Notes under the pieces: generated by a model
The model's database searches: none
What the model was told of the DNA's origin: nothing
What the model saw: the letters and a program-made list of their open reading frames with translations, nothing else
IMG/VR virus record: IMGVR_UViG_3300009183_004565
From: a virus
Lineage: Duplodnaviria > Caudoviricetes
DNA length: 64,000 nucleotides
Direction: 5' to 3' (one strand)
Part shown: positions 9,949 through 53,716 of the stretch, one piece after another
Layout: each line of letters starts with the position of its first letter
How positions within the stretch are numbered: the stretch's first letter is position 1
Made by a program: the position numbers and the translations under genes

Positions 9949-10522
9949 TCGCATATTGGAGTTTGAACAAGCACTGGCCGAATACACAGGTGCGCCATAC
10001 GCAATCATGACTGATTGTTGTACTCATGCTATTGAGTTGTGTCTAAGATTTCAAAAGCCCACTCATTGTGCATTTACTGCTTTTACCTATCTGTCTGTGC
10101 CAATGACCATGCACAAACTAGGAATTGAGTACAGATTGATTCCCGAAGTATGGACTGGCGAATATCAATTCCACGGAACCACAATTTGGGATAGCGCACG
10201 TAGGCTAGAGCGAGGAATGTATCGAGCAGGACAGATGCAATGTCTCAGCTTCGGTTACACTAAGCCTTTACAAATAGGCCGTGGTGGTGCTATACTGTTA
10301 GACAATGAACAAGCATACAACACTATAACGGAACAACGATATGATGGGCGCAAATTATCAGTTACACCCTGGCAGGAACAAAAAACCTTCATGGTGGGCT
10401 ATCATTATAGACCGACTCCGGAAGAAGCTGCGATTGGATTAATAAAATTGCGCGATGTTAATGAACTGCCTAAATATCACGAATATCCTGATCTAAGAGA
10501 TATTAAAATTATTGGAGAATAA
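9938..10522 (+). CDS. Compact DegT/DnrJ/EryC1/StrS-family PLP aminotransferase-like protein
   Basis: FEQALAEYTG, TDCCTHAIEL, WDSA, SFGYTKPLQIGRGG (PLP lysine). Only ~195 aa. GTG at 9938 is the likely start. Confidence 0.7.
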   Translation: MSFDRILEFEQALAEYTGAPYAIMTDCCTHAIELCLRFQKPTHCAFTAFTYLSVPMTMHKLGIEYRLIPEVWTGEYQFHGTTIWDSARRLERGMYRAGQMQCLSFGYTKPLQIGRGGAILLDNEQAYNTITEQRYDGRKLSVTPWQEQKTFMVGYHYRPTPEEAAIGLIKLRDVNELPKYHEYPDLRDIKIIGE

Positions 10523-11354
10523 GTTGACCACAAAAGAATTTACACCAAATCCAGTATTAAACGAAACACCTGATAAAGAATTTGTTCCTATGGAACTGGA
10601 ATCTATGTATGTGGCTTTACCACAAAAGGTATATGTGAAAGCTGGCGAAGCTGCTGCCGCTAAACAATCATATTTGTCGGATGCTATTCGTGCCAGGATG
10701 AAACGTGACGGTAAAAGATACTGGGCAGGAGATAACATCAGTGACTATCTAGCGGACAGTGACAAAGAACATCTAATCAGCGAAGCCGCAGAAGCATTTG
10801 AACTAGTACTAGACCGTTTGCTGATTGATCGCGAAAATGATCCTAACAGTCGAGGTACAGCACGACGCCTGGCTAAAATGTACTTCAACGAAATAATGGC
10901 AGGTAGATATGAAACGGCACCAGACGCAACGGCTTTTCCAAATGATTCGGAGGAAAGATATGAAGGTATGCTTGTGGTTAGAAGTGAACTTCGCAGTATG
11001 TGTAGCCATCATCACCAGCCCGTTACTGGTGTTGCTTATATTGGTATTATCGCCGCTAATAAACTTATCGGTCTTAGTAAGTATACTCGTATTGCTCAGT
11101 GGTGCGCTCGTCGTGGCACACTACAAGAAGAGCTGTGTAATGATATCGCTAGAGAGATTATGAAGGCCACTGATGCTAAAGATGTAGCAGTATATGTACA
11201 AGCGATACATGGATGTTGCGAAAATCGCGGCATTATGGCACATAGTTCGTTAACTCAAACTACAGTATTAAAGGGAACATTCAAAGATGATCCTCATACT
11301 AAGAAGGAATTCTTCGACAACATTAAACTACAACAAGAATTTGCACCAAGGTAA
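10512..11354 (+). CDS. folE: GTP cyclohydrolase I
   Basis: TARRLAKMY, SMCSHH, GLSKYTRIAQWCARRGTLQEEL, HGCCENRG. Confidence 0.93.
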   Translation: MENKLTTKEFTPNPVLNETPDKEFVPMELESMYVALPQKVYVKAGEAAAAKQSYLSDAIRARMKRDGKRYWAGDNISDYLADSDKEHLISEAAEAFELVLDRLLIDRENDPNSRGTARRLAKMYFNEIMAGRYETAPDATAFPNDSEERYEGMLVVRSELRSMCSHHHQPVTGVAYIGIIAANKLIGLSKYTRIAQWCARRGTLQEELCNDIAREIMKATDAKDVAVYVQAIHGCCENRGIMAHSSLTQTTVLKGTFKDDPHTKKEFFDNIKLQQEFAPR

Positions 11355-11394
11355 TTTGCTCCAACCGCCTTAAATATAAGGTAAAGGAGCAAAA

Positions 11395-11724
11395 ATGTCA
11401 GACGAACAAGAAGAGTTTAAAAAAAAATTACAAGCCCTAAAGCCCAAAAAAAAGAAGTTAGCCGTTCCTGAAGGTTTCTTAGACGATGCTAAAAGTTACG
11501 AAGGCAAATTAGAAGCTGTTAAAATAATCTCAGAGCGAGAAAAAGATCGAGTTATTTTGATATTTAAAAAAATGATTGCACAAGGTAAAGAAGATGCAAT
11601 ACGTATTGAACGAGAAAAACTAGAAGCTAAACGAGCAGCTGAAGCTAAAGAAGCATTAGAAAGAGCAGCAAAGATAGCAAAAGAAAAGTTAGCCAAAAAA
11701 TCATTATTTGGTAAAAAGAAGTAA
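11395..11724 (+). CDS. Basic coiled-coil hypothetical protein
   Basis: AGGAG RBS, K/E/A-rich helical sequence; preceded by TTAAATA box at 11370-11376. Confidence 0.55.
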   Translation: MSDEQEEFKKKLQALKPKKKKLAVPEGFLDDAKSYEGKLEAVKIISEREKDRVILIFKKMIAQGKEDAIRIEREKLEAKRAAEAKEALERAAKIAKEKLAKKSLFGKKK

Positions 11725-11742
11725 ATTCAATTAATCAAGGAG

Positions 11743-11937
11743 ATGTATATGAAACTCAACGACAAGCTAGTAAAATGCAACGATCATTTTACTGTCTATA
11801 TGTACGACAATGGCTATATGGTTGAAATTGGTGGACGTGACGACAACGACGAATGGGTTACTGCCAAAGTTCTTTGCACAGATTTTAAAGAACTAACCAA
11901 TCTTATCGAAGAAGCTACCATAATGGAACGTGACTAA
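11743..11937 (+). CDS. Hypothetical protein
   Basis: AGGAG RBS, 64 aa ORF. Confidence 0.55.
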   Translation: MYMKLNDKLVKCNDHFTVYMYDNGYMVEIGGRDDNDEWVTAKVLCTDFKELTNLIEEATIMERD

Positions 11938-12470
11938 TGAAAAAGTTAATTATCTCGGATGCTGAATTTAAAAAATTAGTTCACAAGCTCTGCAGAGATA
12001 TTGCCAATAGCGATTGGCGACCTGACTATGTTGTAGGTTTAACTCGTGGTGGACTTACTGCTGCTGCCATGATCAGTCATTATTTTGATGTTCCTATGGA
12101 AACATTGAAGCCAAGATCGGAAAGCAATTGCTGGATGGCTGAAGATGCATTTGGATATATTCCAGACGGTCCGCTACGTGAAGGCATAGATAAACGCAGT
12201 GACGCTACATTTAAAAAGAAAATTCTTGTTGTCGATGACATTAACGATACCGGTTCTACACTTGAATGGATACGTGAAGATTGGCAATCAAGTTGTTTGC
12301 CCAACGACGAATCTTGGAAATATGTATGGAACAAGAACGTGCGTTTTGCTGTATTAATCAATAACGAATCCAGTAACTATGAGCATGTGGATTATTCAGG
12401 TCGTAACATTAATAAACTTGATGATCCGTGTTGGGTAGTGTTCCCCTGGGAAAATTGGTGGGAGGCATGA
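11937..12470 (+). CDS. Type I phosphoribosyltransferase (xanthine/guanine PRT-like)
   Basis: VVGLTRGG, PRPP loop ILVVDDINDTGSTL, C-terminal WVVFPWE. Confidence 0.85.
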   Translation: MKKLIISDAEFKKLVHKLCRDIANSDWRPDYVVGLTRGGLTAAAMISHYFDVPMETLKPRSESNCWMAEDAFGYIPDGPLREGIDKRSDATFKKKILVVDDINDTGSTLEWIREDWQSSCLPNDESWKYVWNKNVRFAVLINNESSNYEHVDYSGRNINKLDDPCWVVFPWENWWEA

Positions 12471-12805
12471 TTGCCTTACCGCCAGGCTGTACTGTTACCT
12501 ATGCTGTTTGGGTCGATGTAAATCGACTCACCAACGAAATGGTTGAATGGTATCGTCAAGTTGATGGCAAGGTTTACGAAGATCGTTGGTATGATACTCG
12601 AGGTAGAGAACAAACAGTAAACTACGTGAGTTATGGCAAGAGCAAACGATGCCATCATCATCACAACGGTCAAGGTGGTACTAGGTTACACTTCCACGGT
12701 GATGATGCTAGTGCGGCCAGTATGTTTATATTAAAGTTTTTCAATCACGTAACTAGTAATAATTTACAAGACGTAATGGAACGTCATGCTCACGAGGTTG
12801 ACTAA
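12467..12805 (+). CDS. Hypothetical protein
   Basis: GGAGG RBS then ATG 12467 overlapping the PRT stop. Confidence 0.55.
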   Translation: MIALPPGCTVTYAVWVDVNRLTNEMVEWYRQVDGKVYEDRWYDTRGREQTVNYVSYGKSKRCHHHHNGQGGTRLHFHGDDASAASMFILKFFNHVTSNNLQDVMERHAHEVD

Positions 12806-12812
12806 GTAAATT

Positions 12813-13382
12813 ATGATCAATGTAGGAATATATCTAGAATCTAAGCCATTTAATGATAATTGGCCAAAAATTAAAATCTATCATAACAATAGTCTACTCG
12901 ACGATGTAATTTGTCATCAGTCACTAGAGTTACATTATCAAATTAAACCTAGCGTTGATAACCTTCTCTCAATTGAGATGTACGGAAAAAGATTCGGCGA
13001 TGGCGGAATATATGATGTGGACAGTAACGGACAAGGACAAGAAATTCAAATTAAAGATATTACTTTTGATGATGTGTCAATTGATCACTTGTTGTCAAAA
13101 GTTGAATTTGAAACCCACTGGACTGAACACCAGCTTTCTTCACACAACGAAGAATTTAGATCTAAATATAATAGATATCAATCCAACGGTATGATAGTCT
13201 TTAACGGAAGACTGAATTTTAATTTTTCAACTCCTATATATGATTTTTTAATTGATAAAAAGTATAAAGTTGATCATAACAAAGACATTGCTTATTTTAG
13301 TAACAGCACGGAACTATTTAATTTTCATCTTGGATTAAGTAAATTAGAAGAAATTAAAAAAATTATTACAGAAAATGAATAA
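12813..13382 (+). CDS. Hypothetical protein (predicted beta-rich), partner of the B12 radical SAM gene
   Basis: 189 aa ORF overlapping the next gene; AT-rich like it. Confidence 0.55.
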   Translation: MINVGIYLESKPFNDNWPKIKIYHNNSLLDDVICHQSLELHYQIKPSVDNLLSIEMYGKRFGDGGIYDVDSNGQGQEIQIKDITFDDVSIDHLLSKVEFETHWTEHQLSSHNEEFRSKYNRYQSNGMIVFNGRLNFNFSTPIYDFLIDKKYKVDHNKDIAYFSNSTELFNFHLGLSKLEEIKKIITENE

Positions 13383-14880
13383 AAAAGTTTTAGTATTATC
13401 AGTTCCGCGACTCGAACCACATCGCCCCCCAATTAGTGCTACTCTTGTTGCTACTGTATGCAAAAATCACGGTTGTGATGTTAAGTTACGAGATCTAAAT
13501 ATTGAATTTTATCATTATTGTAAATTAAATAATATAGAATATCAAAAATTTGATCCAATTTGGGATAGATATGTAGAACCATCAAATTTAGAACTATCAC
13601 ATATACACACTCATATAGATAATTTTATTGCAACTGAAGATTTGCATTCTTACGATATCATTATGATCAGTGTATTTGGCTCAAGTAGCCATTACTTCAC
13701 TGAAATGTTATTAAAAAAAATTGCAGTAGATAGATCTTATAAAATTTTATTAGGTGGTTCGGGAGCATTTGTGTCTATTATGAATCGTGGGCATAATTCT
13801 TTTGTTGTGGAGATGCAAAAACAAAATCTAATAGACGATTTTATAAAAGGCGAGTGCGAAGAATCCTTAAAATATTATTTAGACGGTAAAGAATATCCAG
13901 GAATTAATAACTATGATCCTGTGCAGATTGATGATTTAGATTCATTACCGTTAATTGATTATAGTTTTGTTGACTTAGATGCTTATGAATATCTCACTGA
14001 AACTAAAGATGTTTATGTAGAAGGTAGTAGGGGATGTGTACGTAAATGTACTTATTGTGATGTTCAGAAATTTTGGCCAAAATATCGTTTCAGAAGTGGT
14101 CAGCATATTGCACACGAGCTTATTAACAATTACGAAAAATTTGGCATTAAAAAATTTTACTTTACTGATAGCTTAGTTAACGGAAGTTTAAAATCATTCA
14201 ATCAGATGTGCGATATTCTTGCTAATTACCCATATAGCAAAGAAATTAGCTGGGGAGGACAATTTATTTTCAGAAATGAAAGAACTGTGCCACCGGAGCA
14301 TTTTGAAATGATCGCTAAGGCCGGCGGTACTAATACTTTTTACGTAGGAATAGAAACTGGCAGTGATCAAGTTAGAAAACAAATGGGTAAAAATTTTACC
14401 AACGAAGATATTAGTTATCAACTTGAAGAATTTAAAAAGAATAAATTGAAATGTACTTTTTTAATGTTTCCTGGCTATATTACAGAAACTGAAAAGGATC
14501 ATCAAGACACATTAGATATGTTTTTAAGATGGCAAAAGTATGTAGCCAGTGGAACTATCAATGGTTTAGAATTAGGTAGTCCTTTGATAGTTCTCGAAGG
14601 AACCCCACTAGCTAGTATGATTGATGAGTATCAAATTGCATTTTTAGAGAGTGATAGAATTACTACTGGTAATTTCTGGGTATCAAAATTAAATCCAAGT
14701 TTTGATTTTGAGCAGCGAGCTATTAGGCAAATCAGACTATACGAAGAAGCTGCAAAATATAAATGGCCTATTTGGAGATTTGAATCAAGAGCTGAAGAAT
14801 TAAAACAAACTCTAATTAGATTTTATGAAATAAAAGAAAAAAATCCAACATATAAGATAACACCAATTAAAATTAATTAA
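13375..14880 (+). CDS. Cobalamin-binding-domain radical SAM enzyme (class B methyltransferase-like)
   Basis: N-terminal PPIS...DLN B12-binding-type region; EGSRGCVRKCTYCD (CxxxCxxC), FTDSLVNG, GIETGS, PGYITET. Confidence 0.8.
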   Translation: MNKKVLVLSVPRLEPHRPPISATLVATVCKNHGCDVKLRDLNIEFYHYCKLNNIEYQKFDPIWDRYVEPSNLELSHIHTHIDNFIATEDLHSYDIIMISVFGSSSHYFTEMLLKKIAVDRSYKILLGGSGAFVSIMNRGHNSFVVEMQKQNLIDDFIKGECEESLKYYLDGKEYPGINNYDPVQIDDLDSLPLIDYSFVDLDAYEYLTETKDVYVEGSRGCVRKCTYCDVQKFWPKYRFRSGQHIAHELINNYEKFGIKKFYFTDSLVNGSLKSFNQMCDILANYPYSKEISWGGQFIFRNERTVPPEHFEMIAKAGGTNTFYVGIETGSDQVRKQMGKNFTNEDISYQLEEFKKNKLKCTFLMFPGYITETEKDHQDTLDMFLRWQKYVASGTINGLELGSPLIVLEGTPLASMIDEYQIAFLESDRITTGNFWVSKLNPSFDFEQRAIRQIRLYEEAAKYKWPIWRFESRAEELKQTLIRFYEIKEKNPTYKITPIKIN

Positions 14881-14973
14881 TAAATACTGTTCTACACAGC
14901 GGCCTTTCTGGCATTCATCCCGCTTTACAAATTCTGCAAGCCTATGCTAAAATCTTAACATAGGAGAAAAACA
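14880..14973 (+). promoter_or_regulatory. Late-promoter-like box plus structured 5' leader of queD (candidate preQ1-I-like riboswitch)
   Basis: ATAAATA at 14880-14886. Stem AGCGG (14898-14902)/CCGCT (14920-14924) encloses GCC-TTTCT-GGC, then an A-rich linker. CCTATG (14941-14946)/CATAGG (14959-14964) overlaps the AGGAG RBS. Confidence 0.5.
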
Positions 14974-15471
14974 ATGCAACCTGTTGTATATAAATTTACT
15001 AGTACCAAAGAGTATCACGACGCCTTTCCTTGCGCTTACCGGCAATGGCGTGCCGATAGTCATTGTAATCTAATACACGGCTATTCATTTAGTATGAAGT
15101 TCTACTTTGGTACTAACGACTTAGACGTTCGTAATTGGGCAGCTGACTACGGTGGACTTAAAGAACTTAAAAAGATTCTTGAAGATCAATTTGACCACAC
15201 ATTAATTGTAGCCGAGGACGATCCCGAACTTGCAACATTTAAGTTGTTACAAGAACGGAACATGGCCAAGATTGTCATACTACCACGTTTAGGCTGTGAA
15301 GGCCTAGCTGACTCGCTGTACAAATATGTGAATGGTGTTTATATTCCTGATATGTGGGGACCTAGTGAAGCTGAACGCTTATGGTGTTATCGTGTAGAGG
15401 TTAGAGAGACACAAGCAAACATGGCGTACCGAGAAGGTCACCGTGAATGGAACGAGGATCTGTTTGCGTAA
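14974..15471 (+). CDS. queD: 6-carboxy-5,6,7,8-tetrahydropterin synthase
   Basis: HCNLIHGYSF (CxxxHG), DYGGLKELKKILEDQFDH, GCEGLA, VEVRET. Confidence 0.88.
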   Translation: MQPVVYKFTSTKEYHDAFPCAYRQWRADSHCNLIHGYSFSMKFYFGTNDLDVRNWAADYGGLKELKKILEDQFDHTLIVAEDDPELATFKLLQERNMAKIVILPRLGCEGLADSLYKYVNGVYIPDMWGPSEAERLWCYRVEVRETQANMAYREGHREWNEDLFA

Positions 15472-16285
15472 GTTCGTTATACGATGTGCCCGGAATCCGG
15501 ATGGTCAAGAATTCTTAGACTTAGAATTCAATATTCGTCCGGGCTCTTACTCCGGCAAATGGATAGACTGCATACGTAGTGTGGAACACTTACCTCCACA
15601 TCAATACGGATTTCCCAAATGGCTAGAACACGATGCCGGTGTATACGAGCAACGTATTGCAGATGCATTAAACAACAACACAGATATACAAGAGTTTTTA
15701 TTAGACTCTAACATTGATAGAACCGTGATCAATCAAGACTTGGTCAATGCTGTCCATAGATATATTGAGCACAATCATCAACATGCCGCCGAACATCTTG
15801 TGTTACACAATGACATACATTACTTAGAAAGTATTTGGGAAGGTGCAACTGATGTTGTGTTCAAGAAGTTACAGTGGGTACCACCAGGGCTAATAATTGA
15901 CATGACCTTGGATGACTATAAAGAATTTACTACAGAACCATGCACTAACTTTATACAAGACGATTTTAGTCATGTAGGACGTAGTCCACATAACAGTTAC
16001 CTATATCAAGATGACTCCAGTCTGTACACTAGTTGTGTTATACAACATAAAGTTGGTTCAGGTGCTAAATGGTTTATTCCTGATGATAGTCATATCTTTA
16101 AGGACGAACGTGGATTCAGATCGTGGGTCAGTGAACATCAAGCGTTTTTTAAAAAGCAATGGGCGATAGAAACTAATAACGATCCTAGGCTTTGTTTTGG
16201 CCGTATTATTATTGCCGAAGGTGTGGAAGATTATAGTCGGATTGATAGGACATTTGACTTCGTAGTAAAAGCTTTTATTATCTAA
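15443..16285 (+). CDS. Hypothetical protein, His/Glu-motif family (paralogue of 45334-46458 and 47697-48488)
   Basis: VHRYIE...IHYLE; SHVGRSP; FRSW...DPRLCFGRIII shared with the two paralogues. Confidence 0.6.
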   Translation: MNGTRICLRKFVIRCARNPDGQEFLDLEFNIRPGSYSGKWIDCIRSVEHLPPHQYGFPKWLEHDAGVYEQRIADALNNNTDIQEFLLDSNIDRTVINQDLVNAVHRYIEHNHQHAAEHLVLHNDIHYLESIWEGATDVVFKKLQWVPPGLIIDMTLDDYKEFTTEPCTNFIQDDFSHVGRSPHNSYLYQDDSSLYTSCVIQHKVGSGAKWFIPDDSHIFKDERGFRSWVSEHQAFFKKQWAIETNNDPRLCFGRIIIAEGVEDYSRIDRTFDFVVKAFII

Positions 16286-16306
16286 ATATTTGTAGTATAA
16301 TACATT

Positions 16307-17149
16307 ATGTCAAAAATTAAAATTGCAGAGCTGTTTTACAGCATACAAGGAGAAGGTCGTTACATGGGTGTGCCTAGTGTGTTCTTGCGAACATTTGGGT
16401 GTAACTTTAAATGTGCCGGCTTTGGTATGCCTCGAGGACAATTAAGTACAGAGGCAGATTTGGTTGATCCGGAAAAATATAAATTCTACGATAAACTACC
16501 TTTAGTTAGCACAGGTTGCGATAGTTACGCTAGTTGGGATCCAAGATTTAAAGATCTTAGTCCCATGCTCGAAAGCGATGCTATTGCGGATCGTATCATG
16601 GAGATATTGCCTTTTAACGAGTGGCGAGATGAACACTTGGTTATTACAGGTGGAGAACCTTTACTAGGGTGGCAACGTGCTTATCCGGACTTGTTAAATC
16701 ATCCTCGGATGGCAGGACTTAAAGAAATTACCTTTGAAACTAATGGTACTCAAAAGCTAACTCCAGAATTTAAACATTATTTAGGAGAGTGGACTGCTGA
16801 AAACTGGGATAGAGAAGTTACATTTAGTGTAAGTGCTAAACTAAGTTGTAGCGGCGAAAGTAGAGAAGAAGCACTACAACCAGAAGTTGTTTGCGAATAT
16901 CAATCTGTAGGAAATACCTATCTTAAATTTGTTGTAGCAACAGACGACGATGTAGAAGAAGCATTATGGACCGTACAAGTTTATAGACAAGCAGGATTTA
17001 CAGGGCATGTATATCTGATGCCCACAGGTGGTGTTGAGAGTGTGTATGCATTAAACAATCGTCGTGTAGCAGAACTTGCTATGAAACACGGATTAAGATA
17101 CAGCGATAGATTACAAGTACCGCTATTTAAAAATGAATGGGGTACTTAA
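16307..17149 (+). CDS. queE: 7-carboxy-7-deazaguanine synthase (radical SAM)
   Basis: ELFYSIQGEGRYMGVPSVFLRTFGCNFKC...CDS, ITGGEP, FETNGT, SVSAKL. Confidence 0.92.
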   Translation: MSKIKIAELFYSIQGEGRYMGVPSVFLRTFGCNFKCAGFGMPRGQLSTEADLVDPEKYKFYDKLPLVSTGCDSYASWDPRFKDLSPMLESDAIADRIMEILPFNEWRDEHLVITGGEPLLGWQRAYPDLLNHPRMAGLKEITFETNGTQKLTPEFKHYLGEWTAENWDREVTFSVSAKLSCSGESREEALQPEVVCEYQSVGNTYLKFVVATDDDVEEALWTVQVYRQAGFTGHVYLMPTGGVESVYALNNRRVAELAMKHGLRYSDRLQVPLFKNEWGT

Positions 17150-18391: not shown

Positions 18392-18988
18392 TTATTTCTT
18401 ATATCCTAAATTAGGTTTACCCAACTTAGCTTGGCGTATCTTTTCTTTAGTTTCATCTGATATTGGTCCTTTGATTTTACCTGACCAATGTCCAATTCTG
18501 TTTAATGCCTTACCTGTTTTTGAAATTTTATCTTTTATTTCTTGTGATTTTGGTCCGTGGGATTTGCCTTTGTTTGAAGAGGTACAGCCAGTCATTATTT
18601 GTCGTAAATGCTCTTTTTGTTCTTCTGACATAGGTTTACCTTTGTTATGTGCTGGCTTTGATTTCTTTACACCTTTAAGTAATCCGCTAGTGCCACCGAT
18701 GCCGCCTGCTGCAAGATTCCAACCAATGTGTATTGTCGGTCTTAATTCTTTTTCAAAATCATAACAGGATTCTTCTGTACCAATGTAAATAATATCGTAT
18801 ATTATTTCAGACTCATTATTTTTGATTTCCTCATGCAATCTATAACGTTGTTTTGAACTTTGATGTTCGGTAAATCGTCTTGATGGATCTATAGATACCC
18901 CAATATATCCATCATTCCAAGAATGATTTGATAAATGGATCCAATAAACTGAACAGATAAATTTTTGATGTAAATACATTGCTGACAT
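18392..18988 (-). mobile_element. Free-standing GIY-YIG homing endonuclease with NUMOD3-type tail
   Basis: SVYWI...GYIGVSIDPSRRFTEH, E...N, and basic repeats HNKGKPMSEEQKEHL / SQEIKDKISK / SDETKEKIRQAKLG; antisense to flanking genes. Confidence 0.8.
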
Positions 18989-39730: not shown

Positions 39731-40095
39731 TCTACACCCATTTGCTTTCTAATTGCAGTTGCCGATATTGCCTGTGTGGTATCATCAAACGTTTCTTGTT
39801 CTATTAGGTATCCTACATCTCTACCATACGTAATATTTACAATATTAGGAACCACTAAAATTTCATACATTCCTTTGTAAATAGGATCAAGATCTGCACG
39901 AATATAATTCTTTACTTCTTCTAGACCAAAAGGGTTACTATAGTTCCATCCTTGACAATCTCGTATCATAATGCAGACCTGCCCGGTCTTAGCAATAGCA
40001 CGTTCAAATAATGCACGATGACCTGCATGCCAAGGTTGCCACCGTCCTAGCATTTGTACTGTAGGCTTTTGCCAATCAAAAGTTTTTTCTGTCAT
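39727..40095 (-). CDS. Small HxGH (HIGH-superfamily) nucleotidyltransferase
   Basis: LGRWQPWHAGH, NPF, ISATAIR. Confidence 0.75.
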   Translation of the reverse strand: MTEKTFDWQKPTVQMLGRWQPWHAGHRALFERAIAKTGQVCIMIRDCQGWNYSNPFGLEEVKNYIRADLDPIYKGMYEILVVPNIVNITYGRDVGYLIEQETFDDTTQAISATAIRKQMGVE

Positions 40096-40727
40096 GGTTT
40101 ACCCCATTTAATTTTATGCCATATACGTTCATGAAAATAGTATAAAACAATCTTTGTAAAAAATTCAATGCTGGCTATTCCTGCTGCAAGATGAGGTTGC
40201 CCGGTTAATAACCAACTAACAACAAATGTATCAAGGCTGCCAGTGAATCTCCATGTAACTGCTTTGGTAATAGATCTGATACGACTCTCTTGTCGCTGTT
40301 TAAAATTCATTGCAAGTTTATTTGCAATCGTATTGGCCCAGCGTTCGGCGCTTTTCGCCATAATACGATAATCGTATTGCTCGGGTGCTACAAATACTCT
40401 ATTAGTATCTTCATAACGACTAGTATCAATAGTATCCAACCAGATAACCAAATTGGCTCCATATGCCTCCCTCATTGCAGGTAAAGGAGCAACAAAGTCA
40501 CTAATTACAAAGTCTGCACTAGACTTTTCTGCCAGGTCTCGCATACGGTGCCCTTGGCGTATACGACCTGCTTCACTAAAATCCCAATCGTCGAATCGTT
40601 CACGTACCTCATCAGCATTAAACCATTCAACCGTAAAACCTTTATTGTGTAATTCTGTTTGAAGGGCTGTGGCTAGATAAGTTTTACCCGAACCAGGAAG
40701 TCCCATTATTAATATTCGAACGCTCAT
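40092..40727 (-). CDS. cysC: Adenylylsulfate (APS) kinase-like domain fused to DUF2061-like C-terminus
   Basis: GLPGSGKT, NADEVR, FSEAGRIRQ, DFVAP, VFVAPE; C-terminal ESRIRSITKAVTWR...HERIWHKIKWG. Confidence 0.75.
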   Translation of the reverse strand: MSVRILIMGLPGSGKTYLATALQTELHNKGFTVEWFNADEVRERFDDWDFSEAGRIRQGHRMRDLAEKSSADFVISDFVAPLPAMREAYGANLVIWLDTIDTSRYEDTNRVFVAPEQYDYRIMAKSAERWANTIANKLAMNFKQRQESRIRSITKAVTWRFTGSLDTFVVSWLLTGQPHLAAGIASIEFFTKIVLYYFHERIWHKIKWGKP

Positions 40728-45359: not shown

Positions 45360-46458
45360 ATCCTGGCTTCATCATATCTATTTGCATCTGTTTATAATTA
45401 TTGTCCGACCAGCTATAATCAAATGTACTACTAACTCCATCTACTTCAATTTTATAGATATCCAAGTGACTGCTTAGTGTATTCCAAACATCTTGATAAT
45501 CTGTTGTACCAAAACTTGATTGTAAATCTATTTGTCCAATTGGTAAATACCCGCAACTTAATTTTGGGTCGCGATAATCTCTACCGTTGTCTGTTAACCA
45601 TTTTCTAAATTTATCTTGTTCAATGTTGTGCCACGGATGAGGGCCACCATACACAACATCATTTCCCCATTCAACATCAAATTCGCCGCTGTAATATTTT
45701 AACTCAGTAATTGCTTCGCACACTGTCGCTGTTAGTGGAGGTGCATCTTCATCACGGAACACTTCGTATACTGTTTTTCCTATTTGTGTCCAATGCATAT
45801 ATACTCCACCCAATACACGGTCATATCCATTAACAGAAAATAGTTTTCTATGTTCATCAGTTAATTCATATCGTTGAGCATTAATAAATGTTGTAATTTG
45901 ACTAGGACGCACCCAGAACGGCAATGTTGCAGCTTTACGCTGACTTAGAATCAAGTTTTCCATTTCATGGCAGATATTGTTTAACTGCCGAATAGCATAC
46001 TTTGTTTCATAGTCTGCCTTGCGATAGTACTCACTTAAATCCCAAACTGTACCTTGTAGTATTTCAAAATGATTATGCAATTTATTTAAGACTTCATGAT
46101 TGAGACCATTGTCTGCGTAATCAAATGCTACAACATTTTCTGTTGTATATACATCATCAATTTGATAATCCGTGAAAAAGTTATTGATAGTCGCTACGGC
46201 AGAATTTAATTCATTGCAAAGGTATTCTAGAGTTCTTGCTGTTTGCGGAAACCCCATAAAACAAAAATTCTTTTCTAGTAGATTTTTGTTAGTTAATAAC
46301 ACTTTTAACGCATCAATCCAATTTTTAGATAATTCGTTATTATGCGAGATTATATTATAATCAAATTGATCGTTATAATCCAATGGGTTGCGTAATACAA
46401 CTTTAACTGATGGCGTTCCACCACTCATATACATCTGCTCTTTTTGAAAGTATTTCAT
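45334..46458 (-). CDS. Hypothetical protein, His/Glu-motif family
   Basis: LHNHFE...CHEME; HWTQIGKT; FRKW...DPKLSCGYLPIG. Confidence 0.65.
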   Translation of the reverse strand: MKYFQKEQMYMSGGTPSVKVVLRNPLDYNDQFDYNIISHNNELSKNWIDALKVLLTNKNLLEKNFCFMGFPQTARTLEYLCNELNSAVATINNFFTDYQIDDVYTTENVVAFDYADNGLNHEVLNKLHNHFEILQGTVWDLSEYYRKADYETKYAIRQLNNICHEMENLILSQRKAATLPFWVRPSQITTFINAQRYELTDEHRKLFSVNGYDRVLGGVYMHWTQIGKTVYEVFRDEDAPPLTATVCEAITELKYYSGEFDVEWGNDVVYGGPHPWHNIEQDKFRKWLTDNGRDYRDPKLSCGYLPIGQIDLQSSFGTTDYQDVWNTLSSHLDIYKIEVDGVSSTFDYSWSDNNYKQMQIDMMKPGYDYSSSWR

Positions 46459-47719
46459 CCATAGTAATAGATTGACTACGAATAGCTTCTAATTGTAACA
46501 CGCGAGCCTTACCTCGAGCAATACCTAAACGGTATGCTTCTTCACCATATTGCTCTTGAAAAGTAGGGCGTGTTTTAAGTTGAACTAGTATATCCTTTAA
46601 CGGGCCGAGGGGTGTGGTTGGGCCATCCAAAATTTCATCTACCCATACATTTAATATCTTTCTAGGTAGTACTAAAGGTGACATAACTATGTCCGGGCTA
46701 AAACTAAAGACAACTTTGGCTAGTATGTCTACGCCCAAATCGTTACCTAACTGCTGTATATTACCAACTTCAAACATACCCGGAAGGGTAAGTGTAAAGT
46801 CCAATCTCATTTGACGTCTGTTTGTAGCGAGGCCAACTCCTCTTTTAAAGTTTTCAAGCCATTCTGTATAGTTAAGGCCTGTTCGTATATACTCTCCAAT
46901 TCTTTCTGTGCCATCGATGCTTGCACATATCTGCCAATCCCGTAACCTACAAAGTATATCACTGTACAAATCAATATTCCGATACCGTACGCGGCTAAGG
47001 TTTGTGTTATATCTTGCATAGACATTTGGTCCATCTCCTAGTTCAATTATACGCTGCATATACCGCCAATGTTGTTCGTACATTAACGGTTCTCCTCCCA
47101 CCCAGTACACTTCTTCGATACGGTGGTCCTCTACTGCTGCTGCGAACTCGGCTTCAATTTGAGTTGTTTGGAATTTTTCAATTTGATGTTTGATCTCGGG
47201 TTTCATCCAATTATTCTTTGGATCCGCCCAGTTGATCATGTTGTGTTGGCGTTGCTCACTTTCCCAAGCACTGCTTAACATGTCTCCACACATGCGACAT
47301 TTGAAGTTACAGAGATTACTGAATCTGTAATCCCACGATACTGGCTTCATTGTGGTATAGCCAGTTGCGTCTGTTTCTTCTACTATTTTATCATACTTAT
47401 GTCCGAATAATTGATTAAAATAACTGCGGTAAACGTCAGTGTTTAATAGTTTATCGTTACATACTTCACACTCAGATAATGTTTCACCGGCCATCATGCG
47501 GCGGCGCACACTGCGCATACGATCACTGTTCCAGTGTTGTTCTAATGTAACGGGAATATATTTTCCAGTACCAGCACTGGTATCAATATACTGTTCAAAG
47601 TTTTGTGCAGGCTCACGACTGGCGCAGCATAGCCTACGTTCAGTTTGCGGACTTAGATACGTATGCGTCCACGGTGCCATGCATAATGTAGTAGGTTTAG
47701 TTGAATTCAAGTTTTTCAA
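46403..47719 (-). CDS. Radical SAM protein with N-terminal SPASM/twitch-like domain (subtype A)
   Basis: CMAPW...LCC...CEVC; CNFKCRMC; GGEP; YNTN. Confidence 0.85.
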   Translation of the reverse strand: MKNLNSTKPTTLCMAPWTHTYLSPQTERRLCCASREPAQNFEQYIDTSAGTGKYIPVTLEQHWNSDRMRSVRRRMMAGETLSECEVCNDKLLNTDVYRSYFNQLFGHKYDKIVEETDATGYTTMKPVSWDYRFSNLCNFKCRMCGDMLSSAWESEQRQHNMINWADPKNNWMKPEIKHQIEKFQTTQIEAEFAAAVEDHRIEEVYWVGGEPLMYEQHWRYMQRIIELGDGPNVYARYNTNLSRVRYRNIDLYSDILCRLRDWQICASIDGTERIGEYIRTGLNYTEWLENFKRGVGLATNRRQMRLDFTLTLPGMFEVGNIQQLGNDLGVDILAKVVFSFSPDIVMSPLVLPRKILNVWVDEILDGPTTPLGPLKDILVQLKTRPTFQEQYGEEAYRLGIARGKARVLQLEAIRSQSITMDEILSKRADVYEWWNAIS

Positions 47720-48488
47720 ATTCTAAAATTGGTTGTTTTACGATATACATTAAGTCATCTAAATTTGTAACTTTTCCAATTACAGGATAGCCTGTGTATC
47801 TTAAGATTTTTTCTGGGCCATGTAGATGGTAAAAATTATTATCGTTCTTCTTAATATCGTCTAATAATTTTTGATGCTCTGTAAATTTTTTAAAATTATT
47901 AATGACAATATTGATCCCGGGTCTAATAACACTATGAAATTTACACGTCTGTGATATTTTTTGATAATCTTTTTCTAAATAAAGTTGCAACGGGCTTGCA
48001 CCAACAAATGGATATTGTAGTTTAATATCACCAATTGTTGTTGAATCTTGAAATTTAAAAAAATCGTCGATTGGTATTGTATTATTGTTATACCATTCAA
48101 TTTGTAACCAATCTTGTCTTGTCACTAAGTGATTTCTTCCTTCATTTAGTAAATGCAAGCACTGATGAATTTCGTGTACCAATTCGTCGCAATCTGCAGG
48201 TATACTATCAAACCCTTTTTCTAATAATACTTCAATGTCTTTATGTAACCTAGATGCAACTTCATGGTCGCCAGGTGTATAATCCCAATCCCAGCCAAGT
48301 TTATAGTTGGCTTCCTTAACTAAATCACTCATGTACTCAATGGTATATTTTGCTGGATCCCTAAAAATAGGCATTTGATTATTATAATTTTTGTAAAGTA
48401 AATTATAATAATTCTTGCCAGTTACAGAATCTTCTAATTCTACTGTTAGTGCAGGTAGATCCTTAAAAAAAATTTTAAAATCAAACAT
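47697..48488 (-). CDS. Hypothetical protein, His/Glu-motif family
   Basis: LHKDIE...IHQCLH; YPFVGASP; YTGYPVIGKV. Confidence 0.6.
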   Translation of the reverse strand: MFDFKIFFKDLPALTVELEDSVTGKNYYNLLYKNYNNQMPIFRDPAKYTIEYMSDLVKEANYKLGWDWDYTPGDHEVASRLHKDIEVLLEKGFDSIPADCDELVHEIHQCLHLLNEGRNHLVTRQDWLQIEWYNNNTIPIDDFFKFQDSTTIGDIKLQYPFVGASPLQLYLEKDYQKISQTCKFHSVIRPGINIVINNFKKFTEHQKLLDDIKKNDNNFYHLHGPEKILRYTGYPVIGKVTNLDDLMYIVKQPILEFEKLEFN

Positions 48489-49695
48489 AGCCCATTGCCC
48501 GTGCTATTTCCGGATGCGTATTAATAAAGTTCTGTTTTCTGTATGCATCAGTCTGTTGCATCTTACGACAAAATTCTTTACCATCGCTTCCAGCGCCATT
48601 TTTAATAAAGTTTATTATATTATTAATTTCAAGTTGATAACGATTAGATGACCAGAAAGTAGTTGTTAATTTATCAAGCACCAATTCTTGTGCAGTCTGA
48701 GTCATATATTGTATACTCATATGATCCGGACTATGCATCATATTAAAGTAAACGTCGCCAAAATTCTTAGTGTCTGCCCACGCTAACAATTCATCAAGAT
48801 AATACACATTTTGTATATTAACTGTAAAACATAATTGTGTAGTTATGTTGGGATACAGCAGTTGCATGCCATGAACTGAATCAATTATCGAATTAGCAGT
48901 ACCCCACTTTGCGCCGTATCTTTCGTATTCAAATCTATTGTTTACATTATCAATACTAAATGCAACGTCAACACGCCCAAAGTCTCTCCAAATTTCAACA
49001 AGATCCTGGGGCCATTGTGTAGCATTAGTGTTATAATGTATATCAATATTTTTGCTGTATCCTTGTGCTACTGCGTATTTTAATAGCTCAATATGTTCTT
49101 GTATTAACCAAGGTTCACCACCAGTAAACTCAAGATACTTAATATTGGGCAATAGTCTCTTTAAGTTTTCCCAGAAGTTCGTATCTGGATTACGCGGCCA
49201 CGAACCTTGTTTTAACCATTGATAAGCAATATGTTGTTTCTTATCAAAGTCTTTGGGCATGTACTCTAATTCTTCTACTGCCCATTTACTGCTAGACCAG
49301 GATCCACATATACGGCACTTAAGATTACAAATATTACCAAGTTTCAAATCAAGAAACCATAATTGGTCTGGATTATCATTATCCCAGTCGACGTCATGAT
49401 ACAATTCTTTTAAACGTATACGACTATTCATGCGTTTACTTGTTCTGCCGGCAGACTCCTCGTCCCAACATAGTTTACAAGTTTCTGGTTGTTCGCCAGC
49501 ACGAAATTGCCTACGAAGACGTTGCATGTATTCGCTATGATAAATTGTTTCTAAATTGTCTTTATTTAAATCAAACTTATCACCGTTGCTGTTTGTTATT
49601 TCCTCTCTGGCCAAACAACACGGTCTAGCAGTTCCGACTGGACTAGTTTCTATACTAATCCACGGCAACATACAAATTGTATTAGGCAAGATCAT
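48481..49695 (-). CDS. Radical SAM protein with N-terminal SPASM/twitch-like domain (subtype A)
   Basis: CMLPW...RPCC...CKLC; CNLKCRIC; GGEP; YNTN. Confidence 0.87.
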   Translation of the reverse strand: MILPNTICMLPWISIETSPVGTARPCCLAREEITNSNGDKFDLNKDNLETIYHSEYMQRLRRQFRAGEQPETCKLCWDEESAGRTSKRMNSRIRLKELYHDVDWDNDNPDQLWFLDLKLGNICNLKCRICGSWSSSKWAVEELEYMPKDFDKKQHIAYQWLKQGSWPRNPDTNFWENLKRLLPNIKYLEFTGGEPWLIQEHIELLKYAVAQGYSKNIDIHYNTNATQWPQDLVEIWRDFGRVDVAFSIDNVNNRFEYERYGAKWGTANSIIDSVHGMQLLYPNITTQLCFTVNIQNVYYLDELLAWADTKNFGDVYFNMMHSPDHMSIQYMTQTAQELVLDKLTTTFWSSNRYQLEINNIINFIKNGAGSDGKEFCRKMQQTDAYRKQNFINTHPEIARAMGYV

Positions 49696-51001: not shown

Positions 51002-52350
51002 AATGAATTATACCAATCTGCTATAGCAGGAAATGTTTCTGTAAAATTTTTATTGCGCCGTTGATTATACTGTTGATGAAATTGTTTAAAGTCGTTACGC
51101 AACTTGGGCAAGTCAAATGCCTCGCTGTGTGGAGTTTTAACTACATCAAGATAGTCTATCAGGCGTTGTACATGATTACGTTCGTGTTCGTGTAACCATT
51201 CGTTATCGTTGGCTGCTAACCATGCTTCTAGATTATTTTTGTGTCGTGTTCTGTGTTCGTCAGGCAATACCAATGGACTTTGAAAACTAGGAAAACGTAA
51301 AATATTTAGTGTAAAGTTCGGAAAGTCTTTTCCGTAACACATTTTCCACTGTACCATACAGTCCAAGAACTCAGTTAAACTTTCCAAACACAATGCATTA
51401 ATGGTACACATAATGTGTAATCCACGCAATTTAACTACACTGTAGTTGTCGCATATGAGTTCTATACTATTAGCCCAATCGTCCCAAACCAATCCGTCTC
51501 TAATATACTCTGCATGACTTCCGATAGATTCGTTACTAGTGTATAGGTCAATTGGTGCGTCCACACTATTAAATAAGCGATCGATATCAACTTGTGTTCC
51601 CAAATTACTGTTAATTGCTAATCTTGTTTTACTTTTACCACGATTAGTCTTAAACCAATCTAGCAGTTGCCAGGTATATCCTGACATTAAAGGCTCACCA
51701 CCGGTGATACGCAATTCGTCTAGTGTACTATGGAGATCCGACTCCCACCACTTAAAAAACGCTTCCACATACGGATTACTCTCGCCAAATCTATAAAGTT
51801 GACTACTGTCATGAGTGTGAGTAAAGTGATTCCTACCGTCTGACACCAAACCAGTGTAGGGTCCATTATCTCTGATATCTTTAACCCATGTTGAACTGAA
51901 AGCAGGATTGCAGTAAGAGCAAGCAAATTGGCAAGTACGGTCAAAACTAATTTCAAGAGTGCGAAGATTAATATCTTCGGTGTATGATGTTTTGTATGCA
52001 TGATTTAAATCCTCGTCTGAATATATTACTGTTTTGTATACTCGATCGCTAATGTTATCTCTACCTATATCCTCTATTTTCCAACAATACTCACAGCCTT
52101 CAGGTCTGTCGCCTTTTTGCATTAGGCGTCGCTCTGCTTTCTTTTTGTGTGTATTATGTAATGTTCGAGGATTTTCAATCACATCTTCTACTTCAATCTT
52201 GTGTGGCAATGGGTGATGACAACTTGTGGTCATACCGCTGCCCAACCATATAGTAGCGTTGTACCATTTTGCTCCGCAGAATGAATCTGACTTGATGTCA
52301 ATCACTCTACGCTTATATTGTAAATCTGTTTCGTTATTAATTCTGGGCAT
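50998..52350 (-). CDS. Radical SAM protein with N-terminal SPASM/twitch-like domain (subtype B)
   Basis: CGAKW...TSCHH...CEYC; CQFACSYC; GGEP. Confidence 0.87.
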   Translation of the reverse strand: MPRINNETDLQYKRRVIDIKSDSFCGAKWYNATIWLGSGMTTSCHHPLPHKIEVEDVIENPRTLHNTHKKKAERRLMQKGDRPEGCEYCWKIEDIGRDNISDRVYKTVIYSDEDLNHAYKTSYTEDINLRTLEISFDRTCQFACSYCNPAFSSTWVKDIRDNGPYTGLVSDGRNHFTHTHDSSQLYRFGESNPYVEAFFKWWESDLHSTLDELRITGGEPLMSGYTWQLLDWFKTNRGKSKTRLAINSNLGTQVDIDRLFNSVDAPIDLYTSNESIGSHAEYIRDGLVWDDWANSIELICDNYSVVKLRGLHIMCTINALCLESLTEFLDCMVQWKMCYGKDFPNFTLNILRFPSFQSPLVLPDEHRTRHKNNLEAWLAANDNEWLHEHERNHVQRLIDYLDVVKTPHSEAFDLPKLRNDFKQFHQQYNQRRNKNFTETFPAIADWYNSL

Positions 52351-53716
52351 GATATCTACATTCCTCCCAGAACTCTCGCATTTCCGGGAACGTTTTTAAA
52401 AAGTCTGTTTCTCTACGTTTATCGTGCTCGTTAAAGAATCTATAAAAGTCAGCACGTTGTAGTTTAACATATTCTGGATCTAATTTGCTACCTTCCTTCA
52501 TCCAATCAATAGTTCTCCGCATACGCTGTACTTCATAATCTTTGAATCCTTGAAATGGACGGTCAGGTCGTTCTAAATTTTCTTCCATCCAATTGGCTAC
52601 ATCAGTTAATCGTTGTGCATAAACCGGCGGAAGTATTTGTAAACTTTGCCACGTGGGTTGTCTCAATAGTGGTGTATCAAACCAAACACGCTGATACGTA
52701 TCACTATGTAATCGTCTATAATTTAAAATATCCTGTAGTAAATTTTTAATACCTAATACACTAAGATTGTTCATTGTTATAATAAAAGTAAGACTGTTTC
52801 TTTTTGTTACTTCTATTAGATACTTTGCACAATTATATTGAAGTCTAGAATAATTTAATCCATGCCTTATATATTCTGCATGTTCAGGAATTCCGGAGTC
52901 TACACTAACATACTGCATGAAATGTTCAATTTGTGTGTCACATAATCTTTGAACGTAGTCAATATACTTGTTCATTAACTGTGGATCTACACTAAAATTA
53001 CTAGTAACATCAATATGCAAATCCGGTTTAGGCAATGCCAATACATAATCAAATACCTTAAAGGTATTACGATCCATCAACGGTTCACCACCAGTCATCC
53101 TAAAATGTTTTAGTTTTGGGTAAAGAGTGGGCCACCACGCCCAAAAAGCATCTACATAGGGGTTGTCATTGCGAACAGGTATAGGCTTGCGGCGGCCATT
53201 AAAATGGATCGGGTCATTATGAGGTTTACTAGTAGGGTAGGCTCCCCATCGTTGGATTTCGTCTTCCCACGACGAACTAAACTGTGGACTACAGTAACTA
53301 CAGCGAAGGTTACAAGCATGATTAAAATTAACTTCCACATAGGAAGGAACGGCATCTTCATCTCCTGTCAAATTTAGTATTGTATCAAAGTGTTCAGCTG
53401 CCCAGGGCTCACCACTACGGTAATGTCTGTCACTTAGGTTACCTAAGTCTTCTTGTGTCCAGCAATAACTACATTCTTGTGGACGTTCATTGCGTAACAT
53501 AATTTTACGCTGCTCTTTTTTATATGGTGTATTGTGTAATGCACCAGGATTATCTTTTAGTAATGTGGCATCTATTTCGTGTAGCGGAGGATGATAGCAA
53601 CTGTTGGTTAATCCTGTAGGTAGGTGTAGGCTAACCTGCTGCCACTTGGCAAGGCACAGAGCTTCGCCCAGTTTCGCCTTCATCTGCTCTGCAGCAGACA
53701 TGAAGTCACTTACCAT
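52337..53716 (-). CDS. Radical SAM protein with N-terminal SPASM/twitch-like domain (subtype B)
   Basis: CLAKW...NSCYH...CSYC; CNLRCSYC; GGEP. Confidence 0.87.
   Translation of the reverse strand: MVSDFMSAAEQMKAKLGEALCLAKWQQVSLHLPTGLTNSCYHPPLHEIDATLLKDNPGALHNTPYKKEQRKIMLRNERPQECSYCWTQEDLGNLSDRHYRSGEPWAAEHFDTILNLTGDEDAVPSYVEVNFNHACNLRCSYCSPQFSSSWEDEIQRWGAYPTSKPHNDPIHFNGRRKPIPVRNDNPYVDAFWAWWPTLYPKLKHFRMTGGEPLMDRNTFKVFDYVLALPKPDLHIDVTSNFSVDPQLMNKYIDYVQRLCDTQIEHFMQYVSVDSGIPEHAEYIRHGLNYSRLQYNCAKYLIEVTKRNSLTFIITMNNLSVLGIKNLLQDILNYRRLHSDTYQRVWFDTPLLRQPTWQSLQILPPVYAQRLTDVANWMEENLERPDRPFQGFKDYEVQRMRRTIDWMKEGSKLDPEYVKLQRADFYRFFNEHDKRRETDFLKTFPEMREFWEECRYHAQN

Follow-up and report, generated by a model that had tools for sequence, protein, structure and literature searches.

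The cyclophilin-like structural superfamily, whose members share a closed eight-stranded β-barrel capped by helices, includes the cyclophilin peptidyl-prolyl isomerases (PPIases; PF00160), in which the catalytic residues, as numbered in hCypA, are R55, F60, Q63, N102, F113, W121 and H126. It also takes in the PF04126 and PF18050 types of protein, which are cellular and often flavodoxin-fused, and for which we know of no chemistry. The Pictet-Spenglerases McbB and KslB show that such barrels are able to host small-molecule chemistry, and to our knowledge neither has a metal-bearing helical insert. Among helical metalloproteins, hemerythrins carry the ligand set H, HxxxE, H, HxxxH and HxxxxD, and ferritin-like proteins two E...ExxH sets. 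Here we analyse three open reading frames (ORFs) from an uncultured giant lake phage, P0001 (15443-16285, +), P0002 (45334-46458, -) and P0003 (47697-48488, -), which are members, one of them probable, of a family that combines a predicted cyclophilin-like barrel with a candidate metal site on a helical insert, and which lie next to genes for radical S-adenosylmethionine (rSAM) enzymes. All three are located in the window, by which we mean the whole stretch of DNA analysed, namely the first 63.8 kb of the 144-kb IMG/VR virus record IMGVR_UViG_3300009183_004565 (estimated record completeness 41%). We refer to their relatives as the fam1 clade (P0001), fam2 (P0002) and the fam3 clade (P0003), and residue numbers are counted from the listed ORF starts.

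The three reading frames are open at these coordinates, and the shared pattern of His/Glu pairs followed by a glycine-containing motif and a DPxLxxGxxxI-like C-terminal end, which the original prediction had proposed for them, is real, the motifs being present and colinear in all three. They comprise H105/E109, H122/H126/E129, HVGRS (177-181), C198 and G253 in P0001; H128/E132, N160/H164/E167, IGKT (226-229), C247 and G303/G308 in P0002; and H82/E86, H108/H112, VGAS (162-165), C182 and G233/G238 in P0003. The probable true start of P0001 is the TTG at 15464, which is preceded by GAGGA and agrees with homologues that begin MxKF, and most homologues of P0002 start about 9-11 residues further in than the listed ORF. 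Pairwise BLASTP likeness is weak (E 0.003 for P0001-P0003, 0.31 for P0001-P0002 and 0.074 for P0002-P0003), and relationships were assessed between families, using 44 close homologues of P0001 (47-97% identity), 4190 homologues of P0002 and the 77 cluster representatives that an exhaustive HMMER search returned for P0003 (identity down to ~19%). Family-versus-family comparison with hhalign settles the relationship left weak by BLASTP, aligning the P0001 and P0003 families over 228 columns with a probability of 98% (E 1.6e-13), and by this profile evidence P0001 and P0003 are clear homologues.

The position of P0002 required a broader target. Against A4, the joint profile of the family, the P0002 family aligned over 261 colinear columns with a probability of 68% (E 4.7e-5), and the E-value fell steadily as the target profile was broadened (1.1e-3 for A2, 2.1e-4 for A3, 4.7e-5 for A4), whereas reversed sequences stayed at E 0.16-0.39, and E-values of 0.1-0.3 were obtained for unrelated proteins encoded in the same operons. 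When 2191 ORFs were searched with the fam3 hidden Markov model (HMM), two members of fam2 were also matched, at E 7e-5. The alignment pairs H128/E132 of P0002 with H82/E86 of P0003, H164/E167 with H112/E115, IG (226-227) with VG (162-163), C247 with C182 and G303/G308 with G233/G238. In fam2, H128, E132, N160, H164, E167, G227, D236, C247 and G303 are invariant and G308 is conserved at 88%; the aligned key positions are thus nearly all invariant against a background of just 20% of positions. The opposing view, in which P0002 is unrelated, only two copies belong together and the resemblance is a chance likeness of motifs, can point to the non-significant pairwise BLASTP scores, to hhalign E-values of 0.11 when the P0002 family is compared with A1 or A5 alone, to the A4 profile not picking up, at E ≤0.01, the fam2 genes of five complete genomes, and to the poor ESM Atlas model of P0002 (predicted local distance difference test, pLDDT, 0.36). 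It is difficult to reconcile with the response to profile breadth, the fam3 HMM matches, the invariance of the aligned residues and the operon position that P0002 shares with array-embedded fam3 members, and we regard it as unlikely. P0002 is, on this profile evidence, quite probably a divergent family member, and since both the profile match and the invariance of the key residues support membership, the motif alignment originally proposed for it was correct. The three ORFs are accordingly best described from their sequences as paralogues, two of them certain and one probable.

To place the family structurally, AlphaFold2 (AF2) models were examined for two members. The model of P0003, built on the 76-sequence joint alignment, has a pLDDT of 94.4 and a predicted template modelling score of 0.88, and that of P0001, built on a shallow alignment, a pLDDT of 70. 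Comparison of the P0003 model with 48,161 PDB representatives using VIA-align returned cyclophilins in all of the top 30 rows (Z 8.0-10.1, ~131 residues, root-mean-square deviation (rmsd) ~3.1 Å), and the separate P0001 model agrees, with cyclophilin matches at Z up to 10.3. Over both models, about 30 cyclophilin entries aligned at Z 8.0-10.3 with 124-142 residues and an rmsd of 2.9-5.0 Å; these values are moderately above the stated VIA-align noise level of Z 7-8, yet the top 30 rows all represent one fold. Foldseek against the PDB gave no row at E ≤0.001 for either model, the fold emerging from the exhaustive VIA-align comparison alone, and neighbours in the ESM Atlas fall into clusters of the cyclophilin-like families PF00160, PF04126 and PF18050. 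Two independent models thus contain the closed, helix-capped eight-stranded barrel and superpose on cyclophilins. DSSP analysis of the P0003 model assigns helices to residues 50-64, 75-88 and 98-115, and residues 43-118 (48135..48362, -), which match small helical bundles only, are read from the model as a three-helix insert that carries H82/E86 on helix 75-88 and H108/H112 on helix 98-115. In P0001 the helical insert spans residues ~62-134 (15626..15844, +), as judged from DSSP of the model, invariant columns of alignment A1 and helical-bundle matches to residues 62-134, and contains H105/E109 and H122/H126/E129. The architecture is therefore predicted, with high confidence, to be a cyclophilin-like closed β-barrel that is interrupted, past its first helix, by a three-helix bundle. 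The original prediction had envisaged a hemerythrin- or ferritin-like four-helix bundle, to be checked with AlphaFold and Foldseek; because both models match cyclophilin barrels and the helical-bundle matches are confined to the insert, a four-helix bundle is unsupported.

Within this superfamily the phage proteins differ from their closest structural matches. The PPIases are the best structural matches (PDB 7jtk_W, 1zkc, 2a2n and 6hmz; Z 9-10.3, ~131 residues, rmsd 2.9-3.3 Å), raising the possibility that the family is a genuine cyclophilin-type isomerase that helps the large Fe-S enzymes encoded alongside it to fold. Although the structural scores favour this (Z ~10 with 129-134 residues aligned), identity to cyclophilins is only 5-16%, there is no HMM match to PF00160 at E up to 1, the invariant His, Glu, Cys and Asp residues of the family are not the cyclophilin catalytic set, and the 75-residue helical insert has no counterpart in cyclophilins. 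We consider such a role highly improbable, and PPIase activity is not expected. The PF04126 (Cyclophil_like, including TM1367) and PF18050 (Cyclophil_like2) proteins have the same closed barrel (PDB 1zx8 and 3kop; VIA-align Z 7.2-7.7), with ESM Atlas TM-scores of 0.55-0.64, normalised by the small target, over 113-118 aligned residues. The likeness is structural only, there being no Pfam sequence match to the phage family, and these proteins, at 125-165 amino acids, are without the three-helix insert and without the HxxxE / HxxxHxxE / Cys signature. The N-terminal part of McbB and KslB (PDB 3x27 and 9k0a) likewise matches the barrel (Z 9.0, 121-123 residues), but at 10-11% identity, with no sequence relation and in an unlike biosynthetic context.

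Conservation was read from A4, which contains 76 sequences at 12-50% identity. In P0003 numbering, H108, C182 and G238 are invariant, H82, E86, H112, W132, V162, G163, P166, D174 and G191 are conserved at 90% or more, and a Glu three residues past H112 (E115) is common across the family. The insert thus provides H-x3-E and H-x3-H-x2-E, and in the barrel one Cys is invariant, one Asp is conserved and a V-G-x-x-P loop recurs, a mixture of His, Glu, Asp and Cys that is typical of an active or metal site and not of a purely structural protein. H82/E86 and H108/H112 form pairs spaced by one helical turn and carried by successive helices, and each pair adjoins the hydrophobic seam of its own helix as read from the sequence. 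Since these pairs are so arranged and are among the most conserved residues of the family, a metal site is plausible, and to this extent the metal centre suggested originally finds support; its di-metal character is not supported. The helices supply one HxxxE and one HxxxHxxE, which is too few for a classical di-iron site unless barrel residues add to it. The full ligand sets of hemerythrin or ferritin-like sites are absent, fam2 having Asn for one of the His residues, and hemerythrin and ferritin family models in Pfam gave no match at E up to 1.

These observations bear on the proposal that the family houses a hemerythrin- or ferritin-like di-metal centre and acts as a generic rSAM helper, scavenging O2 or supplying Fe or electrons. 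Its attraction is that the succession of HxxxE and HxxxH on neighbouring helices resembles that in hemerythrin helices 2 and 3, a likeness at the level of motifs, and that E115, a fifth candidate ligand, is mostly conserved. The predicted fold is nevertheless a barrel with three helices instead of a four-helix bundle, it offers 4-5 candidate helix ligands where hemerythrin has 7, and a helper of this type would be possible only if barrel residues completed a hemerythrin-like half-site. The gene neighbourhoods considered below also count on both sides of this proposal.

The family appears not to have been recognised before, in agreement with the original description of it. Scanning the three proteins against Pfam at E up to 1 gave just two sub-threshold, unrelated matches, PHROGs and PADLOC scans gave nothing meaningful, and a sequence-profile search of the PDB with the family gave no match; the sources label every homologue hypothetical. 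No match was found by tblastn and megablast among 50,697 records of cultured phages, a set from which near relatives may be missing, an ESM Atlas feature search gave no usable matches, and two pattern scans of 185,579 prokaryote species genomes yielded no confirmed relative, an absence that extends only as far as the patterns used. Other unnamed proteins of the rSAM arrays (220-377 amino acids) that were tried as extra members gave hhalign E-values of 0.1-0.3 and were rejected. In BFVD, P0003 has ten significant structural relatives (E 1e-30 to 4.5e-7); they are uncharacterised proteins that come from uncultured Caudovirales, apart from one from Agrobacterium phage Atu_ph07. This last relative (A0A2L0UZJ4; Foldseek E 1e-8, 11% identity) comes from a cultured jumbo phage (MF403008), the genome of which gave no match to the A4 sequence profile. 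Literature searches for rSAM enzymes with cyclophilin-like proteins, or for N-terminal-twitch rSAM enzymes in phages, returned nothing relevant. On this sequence evidence the family is real, unnamed and so far seen in viral and metagenomic sequence alone, as far as the prokaryote pattern scans reach.

All three members in the window touch an rSAM gene, and gene overlaps of 8-56 nt occur there. The window contains six paralogues of the N-terminal-twitch type (N_Twi_rSAM, NF033640; five scored, at 234-405 bits against a cut-off of 170), a B12-type rSAM and a weak QueE-like rSAM. P0003 and P0002 flank, and are both overlapped by, the N_Twi_rSAM gene at 46403-47719 (-; E 1.3e-83, 281 bits), and P0003 also abuts, with an 8-nt overlap, a second one directly upstream (48481-49695, -; E 1.9e-99), confirming that these two copies lie next to twitch rSAM genes, as had been noted. 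A sixth, more divergent paralogue heads the array (52337-53716, -; E 8.8e-69 with an HMM built from the remaining five). P0001 directly precedes the QueE-like gene (16307-17149, +) and its start is overlapped by the stop of a QueD/PTPS-like gene (14974-15471, +). The place of this copy between the two genes is thus as first described, but their identification as queD and queE is far from secure, the former scoring 32 bits against an NCBIfam cut-off of 89 (TIGR03367) and the latter 49 bits against 206. Among the 77 non-rSAM genes of the window, nine touch an rSAM gene and the three members are all among these nine (hypergeometric p ~0.001, with the qualification that two of the three share one rSAM neighbour and hence are not independent).

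Beyond the window the association depends on the clade. Phages close to the source have genomes of 290-357 kb, several of them complete, and a place among large T4-related aquatic myoviruses is suggested by an RNase H-like gene and by the tail sheath, deoxynucleoside monophosphate (dNMP) kinase and family-B polymerase genes that neighbour the family in relatives. In 77 of 80 IMG/VR loci, fam2 immediately follows an N_Twi_rSAM gene. fam3 is found in N_Twi_rSAM arrays in approximately 16 of 80 loci, where an rSAM gene always follows and usually also precedes it, between tail sheath and dNMP kinase genes in 25, and beside a family-B DNA polymerase gene in eight; at neither of the latter two positions is there an rSAM gene within 5 kb in any locus. 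Neighbours initially picked out by a CxxxCxxC motif alone turned out to be SPASM-type or B12-binding-type Radical_SAM proteins and were counted as rSAM. For 91 unique fam1 and fam3 sequences, an rSAM gene is adjacent in 18, within 2-4 genes in 20, farther away in one and absent from the available flanks in 52. When the count is restricted to the 42 loci flanked on either side by four or more genes, it is adjacent in 13, 2-4 genes off in 16 and not within four genes in 13 (31%). Other genes of the rSAM-rich window provide a background of 6/74 adjacent (8%) and 20/74 within four genes (27%), compared with 13/42 and 29/42 for the family members. The neighbourhood enrichment that had been anticipated is therefore a real statistical link to rSAM genes, involving at least four classes (N_Twi, QueE-like, SPASM-type and B12-binding), but it is not obligate, and the statement that the family always flanks an rSAM gene holds in the window only. 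Even for P0001, two other genes part the homologue from the QueE-like gene in 12 of 14 relatives. The rSAM link is real, recurrent and multi-class, and is neither obligate nor well replicated phylogenetically.

For the di-metal helper, the occurrence of the family beside at least four unrelated rSAM classes is a point in favour, as a class-independent helper would account for it, and all five of the carrier records examined that lack an rSAM gene near the member encode 1-6 rSAMs elsewhere. On the other side, rSAM genes are common in large aquatic phages, which makes such genome-level co-occurrence weak evidence, 31% of well-flanked loci have no rSAM gene within four genes, and members often sit with an O2-requiring AspH-like oxygenase. 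Taken with the fold and the ligand count, this leaves the di-metal helper improbable. We assign a similarly small likelihood to a variant that fits the predicted architecture, namely a new kind of metalloprotein in which a cyclophilin-type barrel carries a hemerythrin-like half-site and which would serve rSAM enzymes irrespective of class in aerobic hosts, through Fe or O2 handling or through protection or reactivation of Fe-S clusters; it would explain the presence of the family beside N-twitch, QueE-like, SPASM-type and B12-binding rSAMs at unrelated genome positions.

A protein of about 450 amino acids is a more deeply conserved neighbour of the family than the rSAM enzymes. It is encoded immediately downstream of a member in 32 loci that represent at least three deep clades, for example at L088:5483-6829 (+), L094:3514-4884 (+) and L206:5735-7105 (+) (alignment A7). 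Of 14 relatives of P0001, 12 have the 450-amino-acid protein next in order, overlapping or abutting the member, then an AspH-like 2-oxoglutarate (2OG) oxygenase on the other strand and only after that the QueE-like gene. The 450-amino-acid protein also follows the member in a distant clade at the sheath/dNMP-kinase position, with an AspH-like oxygenase and a Radical_SAM/SPASM protein, and in a complete 340-kb genome it comes directly after a member that has diverged strongly. It has no match in Pfam, PHROG or the PDB and by hhalign is unrelated to rSAMs or to the cyclophilin-like family; by eye, its C-terminal half has Rossmann/SAM-methyltransferase-like motifs (VGVxGGLK ... FDIS). A four-gene cassette of member, 450-amino-acid protein, AspH-like 2OG oxygenase (PF05118, opposite strand) and rSAM is present in two deeply separated clades (L088:4662-8373 and L206:4821-9510), and the class of its rSAM differs, being QueE-like in one case and Radical_SAM plus SPASM in the other. 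P0001 of the window is the exception in its clade, since the two middle genes of the cassette have been lost and the first and last kept. The source record does contain a 29%-identical copy of the 450-amino-acid protein (G000:C1:116784-118067, -), with no family member beside it.

Taking fold, conservation and neighbourhoods together, the reading we favour is that the conserved residues would form a mononuclear metal centre of Fe or Zn type at the interface of insert and barrel, and that the protein would be a tailoring enzyme that depends on this metal, or else a closely coupled catalytic accessory, acting on the same intermediates as its operon partners in cassettes for small-molecule, glycan or nucleotide tailoring. 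The coupling would be translational, to N-terminal-twitch rSAM genes in the case of P0003 and P0002 or, in deeper clades, to the 450-amino-acid protein with an AspH-like 2OG oxygenase and a nearby rSAM. The P0001 clade would be of this second kind, reduced in the window by the loss of the two middle genes. Homology, predicted fold, residue conservation and gene neighbourhoods are demonstrated and metal binding, catalysis and substrate are inferred from them, and we hold this reading tentatively, at a little short of an even chance. Several observations weigh against it. N160 of P0002 stands where other members have the His of the second helix, leaving fam2 one of four helix ligands short, and a shared fold is uninformative on chemistry. 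In the maximum-likelihood tree the label 'adjacent to N_Twi_rSAM' needs just ~4 changes, 14 of the 16 rows so labelled falling into one supported group that also contains the sheath/dNMP-kinase clade, and the loci were sampled via sequence patterns and are phylogenetically non-independent. Finally, the largest clade, at the tail sheath/dNMP kinase position, has no rSAM, oxygenase or 450-amino-acid partner, and because it stands alone a single shared pathway is unlikely.

The same tight gene coupling to enzyme partners could instead reflect a non-catalytic, substrate-binding subunit, in which the barrel presents a peptide, a protein loop or a glycan to the rSAM, the AspH-like oxygenase or the 450-amino-acid protein, and the His, Glu and Cys residues form a structural Zn site. 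Cyclophilin-type barrels bind peptides, and peptides or proteins are common substrates of SPASM/twitch rSAMs and of AspH-type hydroxylases. Nevertheless no precursor-peptide gene was identified, six polar residues are conserved across 12-16% identity, which is more than a purely structural site predicts, and stand-alone members exist without partner enzymes. We consider a purely binding role rather unlikely, though less so than the di-metal helper, and prefer the tailoring enzyme or catalytic accessory.

The surroundings of P0001 and of the rSAM operon have further features. Upstream of P0001 are genes for a glycosyltransferase-like protein, an NAD epimerase/dehydratase, a DegT-like fragment, GTP cyclohydrolase I (FolE), a phosphoribosyltransferase, a B12-binding-type rSAM two genes upstream of P0001 (13375-14880, +; NCBIfam B12-rSAM families at E 1e-20 to 1e-12, all under cut-off) and the QueD/PTPS-like protein, whose gene is kept upstream of fam1 in relatives. 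Linkage to QueD and QueE is confined to the fam1 clade, the other clades being placed within rSAM arrays or at sites with structural genes to one side and replication genes to the other. In phages, the preQ0/DpdA DNA-modification cluster comprises FolE, QueD, QueE, QueC and the DpdA/TGT transglycosylase, and DpdL is a paralogue of QueD (PMC10516641). The window does not have the canonical set, as FolE is present but the QueD- and QueE-like proteins score far under cut-off and there is no QueC or TGT/DpdA. Neither QueC (PF06508) over cut-off nor TGT (PF01702) was found in the 144-kb record or in three relatives that are 98-100% complete, although a very divergent DpdA could escape PF01702. A role for P0001 as a 7-deazaguanine tailoring enzyme of the DpdL/M/N type was likewise rejected, since it is not a QueD paralogue and its relatives are without QueC and TGT. 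The QueD-like gene of the region 10512-17149 has C-x3-H-G-Y where C-x3-H-G-H is expected, and this region may represent a non-canonical pterin or 7-deazapurine nucleotide pathway, not preQ0 DNA modification. In one relative an inserted HNH/NUMOD3 homing-endonuclease gene (L086:8966-9787, +) separates the cassette from the QueE-like gene, and in the window the ORF at 18392-18988 (-) has by eye the look of a GIY-YIG/NUMOD-type endonuclease. The P0001 region seems to be a hotspot at which genes are gained and lost. The gene at 40092-40727 (-), which lies just beyond the downstream end of the rSAM operon, encodes a P-loop kinase (APS-kinase-like) in fusion with a DUF2061 membrane domain.

The genomes of large aquatic phages are rich in rSAM and oxygenase genes with uncharacterised products, and the family described here is a recurring, previously unnamed piece of the cassettes in which they occur; in one branch alone, its metagenomic homologues number several thousand. 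These cassettes become approachable by heterologous co-expression now that the fold is predicted with high confidence, a few candidate residues for catalysis or metal binding have been singled out and the partners (N-twitch rSAMs, the 450-amino-acid protein and the AspH-like oxygenase) are defined. At present the family stands as a solid new family within the cyclophilin-like fold and not as a demonstrated new mechanism. A generic rSAM helper, if this is what the family proves to be, would find practical use in reconstituting rSAM enzymes, and a tailoring enzyme would represent new chemistry for the cyclophilin-like fold.

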